From: Escherichia coli
GTDB lineage: Bacteria > Pseudomonadota > Gammaproteobacteria > Enterobacterales > Enterobacteriaceae
Assembly (NCBI RefSeq): GCF_013315695.1
Contig: NZ_CP054353.1
Reading direction: 5' to 3' (one strand)
DNA length: 64,000 nucleotides
Part shown: piece by piece, positions 49,953 to 64,000 of the stretch
Position numbering within the stretch: the first letter of the stretch is position 1
Layout of the letters: each line of letters opens with the position of its first letter
Program-made: the position numbers and the translations under genes
Notes under the pieces: model-generated
Told to the model about the DNA's origin: nothing
Databases searched by the model: none
The model's input: the letters and a program-made list of their open reading frames with translations, nothing else

Positions 49953-51017
49953 ATGAAAAAAATTGCTATTATCGGTACTGTTGGCATACCAGCATCATAT
50001 GGCGGATTTGAAACATTAGTTGAAAATTTAACAAGATACAATTCCTCGGGAGTTGAATATAATGTTTTTTGTTCATCGTTTCACTACAAATCCCACCAAA
50101 AAAAACATAATGGGGCCCGTTTAATTTATATTCCGCTTAAAGCCAATGGATGGCAGAGCATTGCGTATGACATAATTTCGTTAGCATATTCTATTTTTTT
50201 GAAGCCTGATGTGATTCTGATTTTAGGGGTTTCTGGTTGTTCATTTTTGCCTTTCTTCAAACTCTTAACACGCGCTAAGTTTATTACTAATATTGATGGC
50301 CTGGAATGGCGAAGAGATAAATGGAATTCAAAAGTGAAACGTTTCTTAAAATTTTCAGAAAAAATCGCAGTTCAATATTCGGATGTCGTTATTACGGATA
50401 ATGAGGCAATTTCTGAGTACGTTTTTAACGAGTATAATAAAGATAGCCGAGTTATTGCCTATGGAGGGGATCATGCATGGTTAAATACTGAGGATGTATT
50501 TACAACAAGAAATTATAAAAGCGATTACTACCTTTCTGTATGTCGTATCGAACCCGAAAACAATGTAGAATTAATTTTAAAAACATTTTCAAAGCTAAAA
50601 TATAAAATAAAATTTATTGGAAATTGGAATGGCAGCGAGTTTGGAAAGAAACTTAGGCTGCATTATTCTAACTATCCAAATATTGAAATGATTGATCCGA
50701 TTTATGATCTTCAACAATTATTTCACTTACGAAATAATTGCATAGGATATATACATGGTCATTCGGCTGGAGGAACAAACCCTTCTTTAGTCGAGGCAAT
50801 GCATTTTAGTAAACCTATATTTGCATATGATTGTAAGTTTAATAGGTACACTACTGAAAATGAAGCATGTTATTTTTCTAATGAATCTGACCTCGCAGAG
50901 AAAATCATAATGCATTGTGAGCTATCATTAGGTGTCTCTGGCACGAAAATGAAAGAAATTGCTAACCAGAAATACACTTGGAGACGAATAGCAGAAATGT
51001 ATGAGGATTGCTATTAA
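49953..51017 (+). CDS. Family 1 (GT4-type) glycosyltransferase
   Basis: 354-aa ORF MKKIAIIGTVGIPASYGGFETLVENL..., typical of O-antigen GT1 enzymes. Confidence 0.8.
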   Translation: MKKIAIIGTVGIPASYGGFETLVENLTRYNSSGVEYNVFCSSFHYKSHQKKHNGARLIYIPLKANGWQSIAYDIISLAYSIFLKPDVILILGVSGCSFLPFFKLLTRAKFITNIDGLEWRRDKWNSKVKRFLKFSEKIAVQYSDVVITDNEAISEYVFNEYNKDSRVIAYGGDHAWLNTEDVFTTRNYKSDYYLSVCRIEPENNVELILKTFSKLKYKIKFIGNWNGSEFGKKLRLHYSNYPNIEMIDPIYDLQQLFHLRNNCIGYIHGHSAGGTNPSLVEAMHFSKPIFAYDCKFNRYTTENEACYFSNESDLAEKIIMHCELSLGVSGTKMKEIANQKYTWRRIAEMYEDCY

Positions 51018-51121
51018 CTCTGTTAAACTTCAAATCTTTTACAATATATGGCATGACTATAAGCGCATTAATTGTTTTTCAAGCCGCTCTCGCGGTGACC
51101 ACCCCCTGACAGGAGTAAACA

Positions 51122-52528
51122 ATGTCAAAGCAACAGATCGGCGTCGTCGGTATGGCAGTGATGGGGCGCAACCTTGCGCTCAACATCGAAAGCCGTGGTT
51201 ATACCGTCTCTATTTTCAACCGTTCCCGTGAAAAGACGGAAGAAGTGATTGCCGAAAATCCAGGCAAGAAACTGGTTCCTTACTATACGGTGAAAGAGTT
51301 TGTTGAATCTCTGGAAACGCCTCGTCGCATCCTGTTAATGGTGAAAGCAGGTGCAGGCACGGATGCTGCTATTGATTCCCTCAAACCATATCTCGATAAA
51401 GGTGACATCATCATTGATGGTGGCAATACCTTCTTCCAGGACACCATTCGTCGTAACCGTGAACTTTCTGCCGAAGGCTTTAACTTCATTGGTACCGGTG
51501 TCTCCGGTGGTGAAGAAGGCGCGCTGAAAGGTCCTTCTATTATGCCTGGTGGGCAGAAAGATGCCTATGAACTGGTTGCACCAATCCTGACCAAAATCGC
51601 CGCAGTAGCTGAAGACGGGGAGCCATGCGTTACCTATATTGGTGCCGATGGCGCAGGCCATTATGTGAAGATGGTTCACAACGGTATTGAATACGGCGAT
51701 ATGCAGCTGATTGCTGAAGCCTATTCTCTGCTTAAAGGTGGCTTGAACCTTTCCAACGAAGAACTGGCGCAGACCTTTACCGAGTGGAATAACGGTGAAC
51801 TGAGCAGCTACCTGATTGACATCACTAAAGACATCTTCACTAAAAAAGATGAAGACGGTAACTACCTGGTTGATGTGATTCTGGATGAAGCGGCTAACAA
51901 AGGTACCGGTAAATGGACCAGCCAGAGCGCGCTGGATCTCGGTGAACCGCTGTCGCTGATTACCGAGTCTGTGTTTGCACGTTATATCTCTTCTCTGAAA
52001 GATCAGCGTGTTGCCGCATCTAAAGTTCTCTCTGGCCCGCAAGCGCAGCCAGCAGGCGATAAAGATGAGTTCATCGAAAAAGTTCGCCGTGCACTGTATC
52101 TGGGCAAAATCGTTTCTTACGCTCAGGGCTTCTCTCAACTGCGTGCGGCGTCTGAAGAGTACAACTGGGATCTGGACTACGGCGAAATCGCGAAGATTTT
52201 CCGTGCTGGCTGCATCATCCGTGCGCAGTTCCTGCAGAAAATCACCGATGCTTATGCCGAAAATCCGCAGAGCGCTAACCTGCTGCTGGCTCCGTACTTC
52301 AAGCAAATCGCCGATGACTACCAGCAGGCGCTGCGCGATGTCGTCGCTTACGCGGTACAGAACGGTATCCCGGTTCCGACCTTCGCCGCTGCGGTTGCCT
52401 ATTATGACAGCTACCGCGCCGCTGTTCTGCCTGCGAACCTGATCCAGGCACAGCGTGACTATTTCGGTGCGCATACTTATAAGCGCATTGATAAAGAAGG
52501 TGTGTTCCATACCGAATGGCTGGATTAA
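51122..52528 (+). CDS. gnd: 6-phosphogluconate dehydrogenase (decarboxylating)
   Basis: 468-aa [45 protein letters not shown]..., recognised as Gnd. Confidence 0.97.
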
Positions 52529-52556
52529 TCTGATTTAATCAACAATAAAATTGAGG

Positions 52557-52586
52557 CCCGGCGTATATTATGCCGGGTTTTTTTTA
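52557..52586 (+). terminator. Rho-independent terminator after gnd
   Basis: Hairpin CCCGGC-GTATATTAT-GCCGGG followed by T9. Confidence 0.75.
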
Positions 52587-52766
52587 CCAATTATCTTATA
52601 GACTAAATTTCACTGCTTAATATTAACTTAATAAATATCAGCTATTCTTATAAAGAAATTCTGAATTGTTTTTCGTTGCGTTGACCATCTTACAACGTAG
52701 CGTTAAAACTTTTAACTCTTATCAGGATGCTAAAAACATCATGATTCACAGTTAAGTTAATTCTGA

Positions 52767-53942
<1,176 letters not shown>

Positions 53943-53951
53943 CATCCTGTT

Positions 53952-53983
53952 ATCAGGGCTATTTACGCCCTGATTGTCTTTTG
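53952..53983 (+). terminator. Putative rho-independent terminator after ugd
   Basis: Hairpin ATCAGGGC-TATTTAC-GCCCTGAT followed by a T-rich tract. Confidence 0.6.
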
Positions 53984-54087
53984 TTACTTGCGTAACAATT
54001 CATTATTTTTATCAATTATCCTATAGCATTCATGAGGATTATCGCTAAACTATGCGGACTTGGAAATTTCCGTCAGTTAGGGTAATG

Positions 54088-55068
54088 ATGAGAGTAGAAA
54101 ATAATAATGTTTCTGGGCAAAACCATGACCCGGAACAGATTGATTTGATTGATTTACTAGTGCAGTTGTGGCGTGGCAAGATGACAATCATCATTTCCGT
54201 CATTGTGGCTATTGCCCTGGCTATTGGATATTTGGCAGTAGCGAAGGAGAAATGGACGTCAACAGCAATTATCACTCAGCCCGATGTGGGGCAAATTGCT
54301 GGCTATAACAATGCCATGAATGTTATCTATGGTCAGGCTGCACCGAAAGTATCGGATTTGCAGGAGACGTTAATTGGTCGCTTCAGTTCTGCCTTCTCTG
54401 CATTAGCAGAAACGCTGGATAATCAGGAAGAACCAGAAAAACTTACCATCGAACCTTCTGTTAAGAACCAGCAATTACCATTGACTGTTTCTTATGTTGG
54501 GCAAACTGCAGAGGGCGCACAAATGAAGTTGGCCCAATACATTCAGCAAGTTGACGATAAAGTGAATCAAGAGTTAGAAAAGGATCTCAAGGACAACATT
54601 GCTCTGGGACGGAAAAACTTGCAGGACTCTTTAAGAACGCAGGAAGTGGTTGCGCAGGAGCAGAAAGATCTGCGTATCCGTCAGATTCAGGAAGCGTTGC
54701 AGTATGCGAATCAGGCGCAGGTGACAAAACCGCAGATTCAACAGACTGGCGAAGATATCACACAAGATACGTTGTTCCTTTTGGGGAGCGAAGCGCTGGA
54801 GTCGATGATTAAGCATGAGGCGACCCGTCCGTTGGTGTTCTCACCAAACTACTATCAGACTCGTCAAAACCTGCTTGATATCGAAAGCTTAAAGGTTGAT
54901 GATCTTGATATTCATGCTTACCGCTATGTAATGAAACCGACGTTACCTATTCGTCGTGATAGCCCGAAAAAGGCAATTACCTTGATTCTGGCGGTGCTGC
55001 TGGGTGGCATGGTTGGCGCGGGGATTGTGCTGGGGCGTAATGCTCTACGCAATTACAACGCGAAGTAA
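54088..55068 (+). CDS. wzzB: O-antigen chain length determinant (polysaccharide co-polymerase) WzzB
   Basis: ORF track starts at 54052; trimmed to MRVENNNVSGQNHDPEQIDLIDLLVQLWRGK..., 326 aa. Confidence 0.95.
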   Translation: MRVENNNVSGQNHDPEQIDLIDLLVQLWRGKMTIIISVIVAIALAIGYLAVAKEKWTSTAIITQPDVGQIAGYNNAMNVIYGQAAPKVSDLQETLIGRFSSAFSALAETLDNQEEPEKLTIEPSVKNQQLPLTVSYVGQTAEGAQMKLAQYIQQVDDKVNQELEKDLKDNIALGRKNLQDSLRTQEVVAQEQKDLRIRQIQEALQYANQAQVTKPQIQQTGEDITQDTLFLLGSEALESMIKHEATRPLVFSPNYYQTRQNLLDIESLKVDDLDIHAYRYVMKPTLPIRRDSPKKAITLILAVLLGGMVGAGIVLGRNALRNYNAK

Positions 55069-55090
55069 TCTTTTCGGTTTTAAAGAAAAA

Positions 55091-55122
55091 GGGCAGGGTG
55101 GTGACACCTTGCCCGTTTTTTT
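55091..55122. terminator. Bidirectional rho-independent terminator between the convergent wzzB and hisI
   Basis: Hairpin GGGCAGGGTGGTGACACCTTGCCC flanked by an A-run upstream and T8 downstream. Confidence 0.7.
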
Positions 55123-55163
55123 GCCGGATGCGGCAACAATATCGCATCCGCTTACCCCGCAAC

Positions 55164-55768
55164 TCACTGATGCCGTTTACGCAGGTTCTCAATTACCGTC
55201 GTTAAATCCAGCCCCTGATCCTGCAACAACACCAGCAGGTGATACATCAAATCAGATGCCTCGTTGGTCAGCTCAAAGCGGTCATGTACCGTCGCGGCCA
55301 GCGCGGTTTCCACGCCTTCTTCGCCTACTTTCTGCGCAATGCGTTTGGTGCCGCTGGCATACAGTTTGGCAGTGTAGGAGGTTTCCGGGTCGGCAGATTT
55401 ACGTTCGGCGAGCAGTTGTTCCAGTTGATACAGGAACAGCCACTGGTGAGCGGTGTCGCCGAAGCAGCTGCTGGTGCCTTTGTGGCAGGTTGGCCCGATG
55501 GGATTCGCCAGCACCAGTAACGTGTCGTTGTCGCAGTCCGGGGCAATACTCACCACATTGAGAAAATTGCCCGACGTTTCGCCTTTGGTCCACAGTCGCT
55601 GTTTAGTGCGCGAGAAGAAGGTGACTTTGCCGCTTTCGAGGGTTTTGTCCAGAGCTTCCGGGTTCATATAGCCCAGCATTAGCACTTCGCCGGATACCGC
55701 ATGTTGCACAATCACCGGCATCAGTCCGTCGGTTTTTTCCCAGTCCAGTTCGCGACGTTGTTGTTCTG

Positions 55769-55775
<7 letters not shown>
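55164..55775 (-). CDS. hisI: Bifunctional phosphoribosyl-AMP cyclohydrolase / phosphoribosyl-ATP pyrophosphatase
   Basis: 203-aa [29 protein letters not shown]..., recognised as HisI(E). Confidence 0.96.
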
Positions 55776-57853
<2,078 letters not shown>

Positions 57854-57854
<1 letters not shown>

Positions 57855-58920
57855 TACAGCACTCCTTTCGACGAGGGCAGGGTGTCGCCTTCCACGCGGA
57901 TGGCCTGGCGTAGGGTGCGGCCAAACGCTTTGAACAGGCTCTCTACACGGTGATGATCGTTTTTACCTTTGGTTTTCAGGTGCAGCGTCACGCCCATGGT
58001 GTAAGAGAGTGAGCGGAAGAAGTGTTCGATCATTTCAGTGCTGAGATCGCCCACACGCTGGTAGGTAAATTCAGCTTTATATTCCAGATGCGGGCGACCA
58101 GAGATATCCAGCGCGCAGCGGGCAAGGCATTCGTCCATCGGCAGCACAAAACCGAAGCGGCAAATACCGCGTTTGTCGCCAAGAGCTATTTTTAACGCTT
58201 CGCCCAGCGCCAGACCGGTATCTTCGACGGTGTGGTGATCGTCGATATAGAGGTCGCCTTTGACGTTGATTTCCATACGGAAACCGCCGTGGGTAGCGAT
58301 CTGATCCAGCATGTGATCAAAGAAGCCAACGCCGGTGTTAATCTTGCTGCCACCTTCGCGATCCAGCCACACCTGGACGTCAATTTGCGTCTCTTTGGTG
58401 TTGCGCACTACATGGGCGTAACGGTCTCGTTTCGTGAGTTGCTCGCCAATCATCGGCCAGTTCAGGATTTCGCGGTCGTAGCGTAAACCATTAATGCCCA
58501 TGTTTTCAGCGAGTTGAATATCGGTCGCGCGATCGCCAATCACATAACTATTGGCACGATCCATCGCTTGCTCAGCGAGATAACGCTCCACCAGTTTTAC
58601 TTTCGGCTTACGGCAGTCGCACTCATCGGCGGGCAGGTGCGGACAAATCAGCACTTCATCAAACTGCACGCCTTGCGAGGTGAAGATCTGCATCATCAGG
58701 TTGTGCGGGCCATCAAAATCCGCCTGCGGGAAACTTTGTGTTCCCAGACCATCCTGATTAGTGATCATCACCAGCTTGTAGCCCGCTTTTTGCAGCTTCA
58801 GCAGCTCCGGGATCACGCCTGGTTCAAAGGCGAGTTTGTCAAAACGGTCCACCTGAAAATCACTCGGCGGTTCGCTAATCAGGGTTCCATCGCGATCGAT
58901 AAAAAGATACTTCTGACTCA

Positions 58921-58921
<1 letters not shown>
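57854..58921 (-). CDS. hisB: Bifunctional histidinol-phosphatase / imidazoleglycerol-phosphate dehydratase
   Basis: ORF track ends at 58924 ([15 protein letters not shown]...); second ATG gives the 355-aa form. Confidence 0.95.
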
Positions 58922-61292
<2,371 letters not shown>

Positions 61293-61297
61293 GGCGA

Positions 61298-62197
61298 TCA
61301 CTCCATCATCTTCTCAATCGGCAGGACCAGGATTGAACTGGCACCCAACGCTTTCAGTTTTTCCATCGTTTCCCAGAACAGGGTTTCGCTACTCACCATG
61401 TGCATCGCTACGCGCTGTTGGTCACCCGCCAGCGGCAGAATGGTTGGGCGTTCGGCACCTGGCAGCAGGGCGATGACTTCATCCAGGCGTTCGGTCGGTG
61501 CGTGCATCATGATGTATTTTGATTCGCGCGCCTGGATCACACCCTGAATACGGGTCAGCAGTTTGTCGATCAGTTGCTGTTTGGATTCTTCCATTTCGCC
61601 ATCGCGCTGGATCAGGCAGGCTTTCGAGCGGTAGATAACTTCGACTTCGCGCAGGCCGTTAGCTTCCAGCGTGGCACCGGTGGAAACCAGATCGCAAATC
61701 GCATCCGCCAGTCCGGCACGCGGCGCAACTTCGACAGAACCGTTCAGTAAGCAGGATTTAAAAGAGATACCTTTCTGATCGAGATAACGCTTGAGCAGGT
61801 GAGGATAAGAGGTGGCGATACGTTTACCGTTTAAGGAGAGCGGACCGTCCCAGGCTTCATCAACCGGCGTTGCCAGTGAAAGTCGGCAGCCGCCGAAATC
61901 CAGACGACGCAGGGTAAAGTAGCGCGGATCTTCACCCTGGGCTCGGCGGTTAAGCAGCTCTTCTTCCAGCACGTTTTCGCCGATAATCCCAAGGTCTACC
62001 ACGCCGTCCATTACCAGACCGGGAATGTCGTCGTCACGCACGCGCAGAATATCAATCGGCATGTTTTCTGCCATCGCGATCAGGCGCTGGGTGTGAAGAT
62101 TGATTTTAATGCCACAGCGCGCCAGTAATTCGCGTGAGTCATCACTTAAACGGCCGGATTTCTGCATAGCTATGCGTAAACGAGTGTTGTCTGTCAT
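61298..62197 (-). CDS. hisG: ATP phosphoribosyltransferase
   Basis: ORF track ends at 62236; trimmed to [25 protein letters not shown]..., 299 aa. Confidence 0.96.
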
Positions 62198-62244
62198 TTT
62201 CTTATTCCTCTTTAAACCTGTCTGAACCGTTATCAACCGCGCAA

Positions 62245-62280
62245 TAAAAAAGCCCCCGGAAGGTGATCTTCCGGGGGCTT
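62245..62280 (-). terminator. his operon attenuator terminator (leader region)
   Basis: On the minus strand: GCCCCCGGAAGATCACCTTCCGGGGGC hairpin followed by TTTTTT, between hisL and hisG. Confidence 0.8.
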
Positions 62281-62342
62281 TCTCATGCGTTCATGCACCA
62301 CTGGAAGATCTGAATGTCTTCCAGCACACATCGCCTGAAAGA

Positions 62343-62393
62343 CTAGTCAGGATGATGGTGATGATGGTGGTGTTTAAATTGAACGCGTGTCAT
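62343..62393 (-). CDS. hisL: his operon leader peptide (MTRVQFKHHHHHHHPD)
   Basis: Minus-strand ATG at 62393; 16 codons including seven consecutive His codons, then TAG. Confidence 0.9.
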   Translation of the reverse strand: MTRVQFKHHHHHHHPD

Positions 62394-62642
62394 AAAAGTC
62401 TCTGTGAATGTTTATTCAACTGATGTCTTTTAACCTAAACCACTTTCACGTTAGAAAGCAAGGGCTTTTTTATATATTTTATGGCGATAGATTTGTTTAA
62501 TGAATGAGCGGGGAAAGAAGGGGGCTAAGAGGACTGTCCTCTAACTTGACAGCACCAAAAAGAGCAAAGTCTGATTTTTCGTCTCGCTGACAATGTCTTG
62601 ATCTACAAACTAATTAATAAATAGTTAATTAACACCCATCAT

Positions 62643-62660
62643 TGTACAATGAACTGTACA
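62643..62660 (+). promoter_or_regulatory. yefM-yoeB operator: palindromic TGTACA repeats
   Basis: TGTACAATGAACTGTACA just upstream of the AGAGGAG RBS of yefM. Confidence 0.6.
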
Positions 62661-62675
62661 AAAGAGGAGATTGAC

Positions 62676-62927
62676 ATGCGTACAATTAGCTACAGCGAAG
62701 CGCGTCAGAATTTGTCGGCAACAATGATGAAAGCCGTTGAAGATCATGCCCCGATCCTCATTACTCGTCAGAATGGAGAGGCTTGTGTTCTGATGTCACT
62801 CGAAGAATACAACTCGCTGGAAGAGACGGCTTATCTACTGCGTTCCCCCGCTAACGCCCGGAGATTGATGGACTCAATCGATAGCCTGAAATCAGGCAAA
62901 GGAACGGAAAAGGACATTATTGAGTGA
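62676..62927 (+). CDS. yefM: Type II antitoxin YefM
   Basis: ORF track starts at 62649; trimmed to [64 protein letters not shown]..., 83 aa. Confidence 0.93.
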
Positions 62928-63178
62928 AACTAATCTGGTCTGAGGAATCATGGGATGATTATCTGTACTGGCAGGAAACAGATAAGCGAATTGTTAAAAA
63001 GATCAATGAACTTATCAAAGATACCCGCAGAACACCATTTGAAGGTAAGGGGAAACCAGAACCCCTGAAACATAATTTGTCAGGTTTCTGGTCCCGACGC
63101 ATTACAGAGGATCACCGTCTGGTATACGCGGTTACTGATGATTCACTGCTCATTGCAGCATGTCGTTATCATTATTGA
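62924..63178 (+). CDS. yoeB: Type II toxin YoeB (RelE-fold mRNA interferase)
   Basis: 84-aa [36 protein letters not shown]..., overlapping the yefM stop. Confidence 0.93.
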
Positions 63179-63260
63179 AGAGATTCATTCATAGAATGAA
63201 TTGTCAGTTTTGATACGCTAGCGTAGCCTTATAGATCTAAGGTGTATCAGGAGATAACGG

Positions 63261-64000
63261 ATGAAAAAGGTCGCAATTGTCGGGTTAGGGTGGTTAGGCA
63301 TGCCGCTGGCGATGTCACTTTCAGCGCGAGGCTGGCAAGTCACCGGGAGTAAAACCACACAAGATGGTGTCGAAGCGGCCCGAATGAGTGGCATTGACAG
63401 CTATCTGCTTCGCATGGAGCCTGAGTTAGTTTGCGATTCTGACGATCTGGATGCCCTGATGGATGCCGATGCGCTGGTCATTACGCTTCCGGCACGTCGT
63501 AGCGGCCCCGGCGATGAGTTCTATTTACAAGCGGTACAAGAGTTAGTGGATAGCGCGCTGGCCCATCGTATTCCCCGAATTATTTTTACCAGCTCAACGT
63601 CTGTCTATGGCGACGCGCAAGGCACGGTGAAAGAAACCACCCCGCGTAATCCGGTAACCAACAGTGGACGAGTATTAGAAGAACTCGAAGACTGGCTGCA
63701 CAATTTACCCGGTACTTCGGTCGATATTCTGCGTCTTGCGGGTCTTGTCGGACCGGGACGTCATCCCGGACGCTTCTTTGCCGGAAAAACCGCCCCTGAT
63801 GGTGAACATGGTGTTAATTTAGTCCATTTAGAAGATGTTATTGGCGCTATCACTCTGTTGTTACAGGCACCTAAAGGCGGACACATCTATAATATATGTG
63901 CGCCAGCTCACCCTGCGCGTAATGTTTTCTATCCGCAGATGGCCCGTTTACTGGGGCTGCAACCTCCGCAGTTCAGAAATAGTCTGGACAGCGGCAAAGG
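63261..64000 (+). CDS. yeeZ: NAD-dependent epimerase/dehydratase family protein YeeZ, N-terminal part; runs off the window end
   Basis: ATG at 63261 after GGAGATAACGG RBS; MKKVAIVGLGWLGMPLAMSLSARGWQVTGSK... (Rossmann fold). No stop before the window end. Confidence 0.8.
   Translation, partial: MKKVAIVGLGWLGMPLAMSLSARGWQVTGSKTTQDGVEAARMSGIDSYLLRMEPELVCDSDDLDALMDADALVITLPARRSGPGDEFYLQAVQELVDSALAHRIPRIIFTSSTSVYGDAQGTVKETTPRNPVTNSGRVLEELEDWLHNLPGTSVDILRLAGLVGPGRHPGRFFAGKTAPDGEHGVNLVHLEDVIGAITLLLQAPKGGHIYNICAPAHPARNVFYPQMARLLGLQPPQFRNSLDSGK

Follow-up and report, generated by a model that had tools for sequence, protein, structure and literature searches.

The question raised by the region ahead of the histidine biosynthesis genes in the window, as we call the whole 64,000-nt stretch of DNA analysed here, is what kind of element it represents and how it would control the genes behind it. 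The original prediction described it as a classical device of ribosome-mediated attenuation. Our analysis leads to the same reading, and we hold it as nearly certain, with a probability of about 0.97, that the element is the ribosome-mediated transcription attenuator of the Escherichia coli hisLGDCBHAFI operon.

The most direct evidence comes from comparison with known leaders. In an Rfam covariance-model scan, the model RF00514 (His_leader) matched 62367-62244 on the minus strand with a score of 131.6 bits (threshold 49; E = 3e-22), over positions 1-126 of its 126 positions and thus without truncation, and its consensus could be aligned to the leader of the window without gaps except for two single-base deletions. 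It was the single Rfam match at gathering thresholds within 50000-64000. When the segment 62650-62150 was compared by megablast with complete E. coli genomes, five 100% matches were obtained, which bear the RefSeq labels "hisL: his operon leader peptide", "His leader region" and hisG. Likewise, an alignment showed 62485-62150 to be the same as in E. coli K-12 MG1655, with a single mismatch at 62201, and in the comparison with the published his leader the promoter region, the ORF, the helices and the terminator are all equal to those of K-12. With an Rfam model matched from end to end and a sequence equal to the experimentally studied K-12 leader, the earlier reading as classical attenuation stands, and the analysis of the locus brought up no evidence contradicting the identification. 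The E. coli hisL attenuator is already known, and there is nothing new in this copy. The coordinates of all features are collected in Table 1.

Table 1. Features of the his leader region and the his operon in the window. Percentages give the share of cells paired in the alignment of 105 leaders.
Feature	Position	Strand	Remarks
Likely his promoter	62461-62432	-	-35-like TTGCTT 62461-62456, -10-like TAGGTT 62437-62432; identical to K-12
Putative transcription start (+1)	62424	-	calculated backwards from the positions given for DnaA boxes 3 and 4 (nt 126-134, 187-195) in PMC10989985
hisL leader peptide ORF	62393-62343	-	ATG 62393, UAG 62345-62343, 16 codons, MTRVQFKHHHHHHHPD; RefSeq calls the identical sequence hisL
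Seven consecutive His codons (codons 8-14), regulatory codons	62372-62352	-	CAC CAC CAT CAT CAC CAT CAT
A:B helix	62360-62347 / 62338-62325	-	-12.7 kcal/mol; 95.6%
his pause hairpin, inner part of A:B	62351-62334	-	CCUGA/UCAGG; role from PMC9291695
B:C helix	62343-62333 / 62327-62316	-	-12.1 kcal/mol; 98.4%; excludes A:B and C:D
Transcription pause site	62323-62322	-	U-1 = 62323, G+1 = 62322, G-10 = 62332; sequence reads CGAUGUGUGCU, then G
C:D helix	62325-62317 / 62308-62300	-	-12.6 kcal/mol; inverted repeat I3; 98.6%
D:E antiterminator helix	62310-62297 / 62278-62265	-	-16.7 kcal/mol; inverted repeat I2; 94%
E:F intrinsic terminator (attenuator)	62286-62244	-	stem 62286-62268 / 62262-62244, loop AUCAC; inverted repeat I1; 3' end of the Rfam match
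hisG, ATP phosphoribosyltransferase, 299 aa	62197-61298	-	TIGR00070 and TIGR03455 above cut-offs
hisD	61292-59988	-	NCBIfam equivalog
hisC	59991-58921	-	NCBIfam equivalog
hisB	58921-57854	-	NCBIfam equivalog
hisH	57854-57264	-	NCBIfam equivalog
hisA	57264-56527	-	NCBIfam equivalog
hisF	56545-55769	-	NCBIfam equivalog
hisIE	55775-55164	-	NCBIfam equivalog
Hairpin with flanking A-run and T-run after hisIE	55091-55114	.	GGGCAGGGTGGTGACACCTTGCCC; likely two-way terminator

Within the species, the 198-nt leader was found in 5423 of 5426 complete E. coli genomes, with at least 99% identity in 4811 of them. A separate observation concerns 28 complete genomes, for example NZ_CP046416.1, in which the his leader is just 90-95% identical to that of the window, compared with the species norm of at least 99%; a possible reason is that these genomes acquired the his / O-antigen region from a different species. 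The same search also returned one match borne on a plasmid and one genome with six copies.

The leader ORF of 16 codons with seven histidines, expected on the minus strand, is present, and it reads, after the ATG, ACA CGC GTT CAA TTT AAA, the seven His codons, CCT GAC and TAG. Seven CAY codons in a row are found at a single place in the 64 kb window, and 100 dinucleotide-preserving shuffles produced no such run. Among related loci the leader peptides end in HHHHHH(H)PD, while the N-terminal half varies freely; the end, HHHHHHPD-stop, is fixed, as it belongs to segment A and to the pause hairpin as well, segment A covering His codons 12-14 together with the Pro and Asp codons. With respect to the number of His codons among the 120 loci of the comparative scan described below, seven were mainly limited to the Escherichia, Enterobacter, Kluyvera and Pseudocitrobacter group, and six were found in most other genera, such as Yersinia, Serratia, Pantoea, Erwinia, Pectobacterium, Proteus, Aeromonas and Pasteurella, in a search whose pattern demanded at least six.

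Upstream of the ORF, the promoter is likely to lie at the hexamers TTGCTT and TAGGTT, a placement that draws on the putative transcription start and on what we take to be the his promoter of Salmonella and E. coli. A start at that position puts the pause U at +102 and gives a terminated transcript of ~180 nt, presumably the values of the older literature. Both the likely promoter and the putative start fall outside the interval 62236-62400, to which the original prediction had assigned the attenuator. The pause site conforms to the consensus G-10 Y-1 G+1, which can be read directly from the sequence, with the end of the hairpin 11 nt upstream, and its exact position is what we take to be that of the his pause in the literature. 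The his pause, the role of the pause hairpin and the pause consensus are documented (PMC9291695). A consensus scan reported no sigma-70-like site at the putative his promoter, whose two hexamers fit the consensus poorly; this result fits a weak promoter, in agreement with the reported requirement of ppGpp plus DksA for activating the hisG promoter in E. coli (PMC4010833).

At the other end of the leader, a GC-rich hairpin and a U-run had been predicted between hisL and hisG, and both are there on the minus strand. The core of the terminator, GCCCCCGGAAG-ATCAC-CTTCCGGGGGC, occupies 62278-62252 and is followed by the U-run UUUUUU at 62251-62246, and the E:F fold reaches -31.7 kcal/mol. The U-run had been placed immediately upstream of hisG, which proved inaccurate: the actual distance is ~48 nt, because hisG starts with the ATG at 62197, preceded by a ribosome-binding site GAGG at 62210-62207. 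Position 62236 is merely the first in-frame TTG of a mechanically delimited ORF, and the analysis of the attenuator thus corrects the start of hisG. The consensus promoter/terminator scan did not report the terminator of the attenuator (62244-62286), which is probably an artefact of the tool, as G-U pairing can extend the stem into the U-run and leave too few T behind it. The attenuator terminator is one of the strongest intrinsic terminators of E. coli, and negatives from a consensus terminator scan call for caution.

The core of the argument lies in the structures that the leader RNA can form between these two ends. The 161-nt leader folds at -68.4 kcal/mol, compared with a mean of -36.8 kcal/mol for shuffles (z = -8.1). 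When neighbouring segments were folded in isolation, five successive helices were obtained, each with an arm common to the next one. Three of them, E:F, D:E and C:D, were recovered independently by a repeat finder as the inverted repeats I1-I3 with overlapping arms. D:E uses 62278-62265, bases that are also part of E:F, so that the 5' arm of the terminator is tied up when the antiterminator forms. Mutually exclusive hairpins, on which the earlier claim depended, are therefore both predicted from folding and seen as overlapping inverted repeats; the location, the sequence and the alternative pairings of the attenuator are what is shown for this DNA.

Which of the alternative helices is preferred depends on the part of the RNA that is available. 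The naked full-length leader RNA folds as A:B + C:D + E:F. When segment A is masked and F is absent, the minimum-energy fold of 62345-62262 becomes B:C + D:E, with -28.8 kcal/mol (z = -3.0 against shuffles), and it beats the best fold containing C:D by 3.8 kcal/mol; the best fold thus changes from A:B + C:D to B:C + D:E once A is masked. In a ribosome scan, the A site was placed at each codon in turn and the RNA downstream of the ribosome was folded without F. With the A site at His codons 8-13, B:C + D:E formed and the probability of the E core being paired upstream was ~0.81 (0.68-0.81 with a longer footprint), compared with 0.24 in the absence of both ribosome and F, where A:B + C:D formed and E was largely free.

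Equilibrium folding accounts for one branch of the decision only. In the full-length RNA the terminator is the minimum-energy fold wherever the ribosome mask is placed, and for this reason ribosome masks on the full-length leader were dropped as a discriminator; with the ribosome at the stop codon and F absent, D:E still wins at equilibrium. Since equilibrium folds do not reproduce the terminating branch, that branch depends on the order of synthesis. The choice of fold is kinetic: C:D would form before E is made and F would nucleate on free E, a step for which we draw on published experiments with the same leader design. Judged from the structure, the loop-proximal bases of E, at which nucleation of the hairpin must begin, would be precisely the ones that D occupies in D:E. 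Snapshot folding, in which the polymerase retained the last 11 nt, was also tried and dropped as evidence, on account of re-equilibration and long-range pairs with the 5' leader, B:C being just transient in these folds.

The steps of the mechanism, as we envisage them for this copy, draw on published work and are in part inferred. Transcription would start ~31 nt upstream of hisL, and RNA polymerase would pause after the A:B pause hairpin, allowing a ribosome to catch up on hisL. If His-tRNA is plentiful, the ribosome would translate all seven His codons, reach the stop codon and cover part of B; C:D would then pair, E would remain free, and E:F together with the U-run would terminate the transcript before hisG. 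If His-tRNA is scarce, the ribosome would stall at the His codons and cover A, whereupon B:C and D:E would form, the terminator could not nucleate, and the polymerase would continue into hisG-hisIE. Without any translation, A:B, C:D and E:F would form and lead to termination. In Salmonella enterica, whose leader has the same design, a stall within the His codons de-attenuates the operon, a translation block or an early nonsense codon leads to termination and low hisG mRNA, and deletion of E:F relieves termination and restores hisG mRNA (PMC4046918). Read-through of the his leader in the same organism rises when charged tRNA-His falls, and it requires translation of the leader (PMC4046918).

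An additional requirement for DnaA has been proposed in a 2023 paper describing a DnaA-dependent riboswitch model (PMC10989985), according to which DnaA would bind 'rDnaA boxes' of the leader RNA, obstruct the ribosome and tip the balance from D:E towards E:F. Such binding would represent an extra layer over ribosome sensing, an add-on and not a replacement. The model draws on raised hisG transcription without DnaA and on in vivo RNA immunoprecipitation of the leader (PMC10989985), and as the leader of the window is identical to the K-12 sequence used in that work, any layer acting in K-12 would apply here as well. On the other hand, every proposed box carries two mismatches, and sites with at most two mismatches to TTWTNCACA number 1202 in the 64 kb window compared with 1135 +/- 32 in shuffles. 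At such a density, about one site per 53 bp, four boxes in a leader region of ~250 nt correspond to the chance rate, and the sequence by itself thus gives them no weight. Binding in vitro was not observed by the authors themselves (PMC10989985), and the genetics is already explained by the classical model (PMC4046918). We therefore consider a DnaA layer unlikely, and ribosome-mediated attenuation remains the reading followed below.

Conservation was assessed in a comparative sample from one DNA-pattern scan of species-representative genomes, in which six His codons followed by Pro, Asp and a stop were searched for. The scan gave 120 loci (L002-L121), nearly all from Enterobacterales, Aeromonas or Pasteurella. 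The alignment consisted of the window and 105 distinct leaders with a downstream T-run, which came from other Gammaproteobacteria, namely further Enterobacterales, Aeromonas and Pasteurella; four of the 120 loci were left out for having no such run, namely L004 (Burkholderiales), L014 (Verrucomicrobiia), L022 (Marinilabiliales) and L120. Across the 105 leaders, 93.0% of cells were paired in the terminator conformation (44-53% in slid controls) and 92.8% in the antiterminator conformation (40-51% in slid controls), values that are to be read with the bias over slid versions that arises from deriving the structures from one aligned sequence, and with many invariant pairs being uninformative. The E:F helix was paired in 97.1% of cells, with compensatory changes of C-G to U-A in 34 sequences and of G-C to A-U in 19. 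A change of C to U in segment E is tolerated as G-U with D in 30 sequences, and in 34 it is matched by a G to A change in F; after a change of A to G in segment C, the base still pairs with U in B as well as in D (26 sequences each). Wobble-only changes are seen at bases with two partners, and these bases vary only in ways acceptable to both, the signature to be expected of a two-state RNA.

These data bear on the simplest alternative, namely that the hairpin is a plain constitutive terminator or insulator next to a coincidental His-rich mini-ORF, with no regulated choice of fold. The preference of the full-length RNA for the terminator at equilibrium is what such a reading would predict. It would leave unexplained, however, a seven-His run found just once in the window and not to be expected by chance, as well as the conservation of the HHHHHH(H)PD end and of both alternative pairings across the 105 leaders. 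Moreover, the hairpin has no upstream gene to end, as yefM-yoeB is divergent, the element lies directly before the histidine biosynthesis genes, and the published genetics contradicts this reading (PMC4046918). We regard a constitutive terminator as close to impossible.

Another potential explanation is that the ~180-nt RNA ending at the terminator, or the HisL peptide, would have a further, independent function in trans. Small RNAs derived from leaders are known for other attenuators, and this general knowledge, with nothing added to it by the analysis of the locus, is what speaks for such a function. Against it, the two alternative folds and the regulatory codons fully explain the conservation, and relatives show free variation in the N-terminal half of the peptide; a second function in trans is thus very improbable. 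The chance that something undescribed is hidden here is likewise very slight, be it a trans role of the leader RNA or HisL, or a lesser variant in which the G/C difference at 62201 tunes hisG translation in this lineage. The analysis of the locus gave no pointer to a trans role, nor to an effect of 62201 on hisG translation.

In its organization the element is closest to hisL of E. coli K-12 (b2018, RF00514), with which it shares the promoter, the leader ORF, the five helices, the pause site, the terminator and the spacing to hisG, along with the order of the genes, hisLGDCBHAFI, and yefM-yoeB as divergent neighbours. The differences are confined to position 62201, where K-12 has C instead of the G of the window, and to scattered changes from 62486 upstream, in the yefM-hisL spacer. 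The his leader of Salmonella enterica, the model of which is reportedly that of Johnston, Barnes, Chumley, Bossi and Roth 1980, differs from the leader of E. coli in base substitutions in loops and spacers. It encodes the same 16-residue peptide with seven His and follows the same scheme of A:B/C:D/E:F versus B:C/D:E (PMC4046918).

More distant likeness is found in the leaders trpL, leuL, thrL, pheL and ilvL. According to two published accounts (PMC9291695; PMC1183508), they follow the same logic, with a leader peptide in which the cognate amino acid is abundant, together with a pause hairpin and an alternative antiterminator and terminator, and like his they are described there as working with no dedicated regulatory protein. 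They differ in their regulatory codons and in their unrelated sequences, the his leader being built as a chain of five helices. To our knowledge, the his leader has no repressor layer, unlike trp. T-box leaders, present in Gram-positive amino-acid operons, also sense tRNA charging and choose between terminator and antiterminator, but they bind uncharged tRNA directly, without a leader peptide or ribosome. The Rfam scan of 50000-64000 gave no T-box match, His_leader alone being returned.

Downstream of the attenuator, the eight structural genes had been described as intact and tightly packed with several overlaps, and this description was borne out. All eight have open frames without internal stops and exceed the curated cut-offs of NCBIfam profiles over essentially their full length, and six of the seven gene junctions overlap, by 4, 1, 1, 1, 19 and 7 nt, the exception being a 5-nt gap between hisG and hisD. 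Judging by its sequence, the hairpin found after hisIE is probably a two-way terminator common to the his operon and to the convergent gene at 54052-55068. The stretch after hisIE, within 55069-55163, also contains a GC-rich, REP-like repeat, GCGGATGCG...CCGCATCCGGC.

On the other side of the leader, the neighbours upstream of hisL are divergent and show the yefM-yoeB layout. Two overlapping small ORFs on the plus strand (62649/62676-62927 and 62924-63178) are arranged as in the yefM-yoeB toxin-antitoxin system of E. coli JP538 and K-12; the mechanically delimited yefM ORF starts at 62649, and the annotated YefM of 83 aa would begin at the second ATG, near 62676. Two TGTACA motifs, located directly upstream of the yefM start, look operator-like. 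The yefM-hisL spacer further contains a perfect 15-bp palindrome, AGAGGAC-A-GTCCTCT (62528-62542, minus strand), ~70 bp upstream of the likely his promoter, which is conserved in K-12 though the flanking bases differ. Its one-base centre rules out an RNA hairpin, and a protein-binding site is therefore the more likely interpretation. The single difference from MG1655 in the compared region, mentioned above, falls in the gap that separates the ribosome-binding site of hisG from its ATG, 4 nt upstream of the latter.

As a real regulatory RNA that was recognised from raw sequence in the original prediction, the element can be used as a positive control. The his attenuator belongs to the examples on which the concept of transcription attenuation was founded, and the copy in the window is the same as that of K-12 and has no discovery value in itself. 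It does, however, fix the window as part of the E. coli chromosome, at the locus yefM-yoeB / his / wzzB-ugd.
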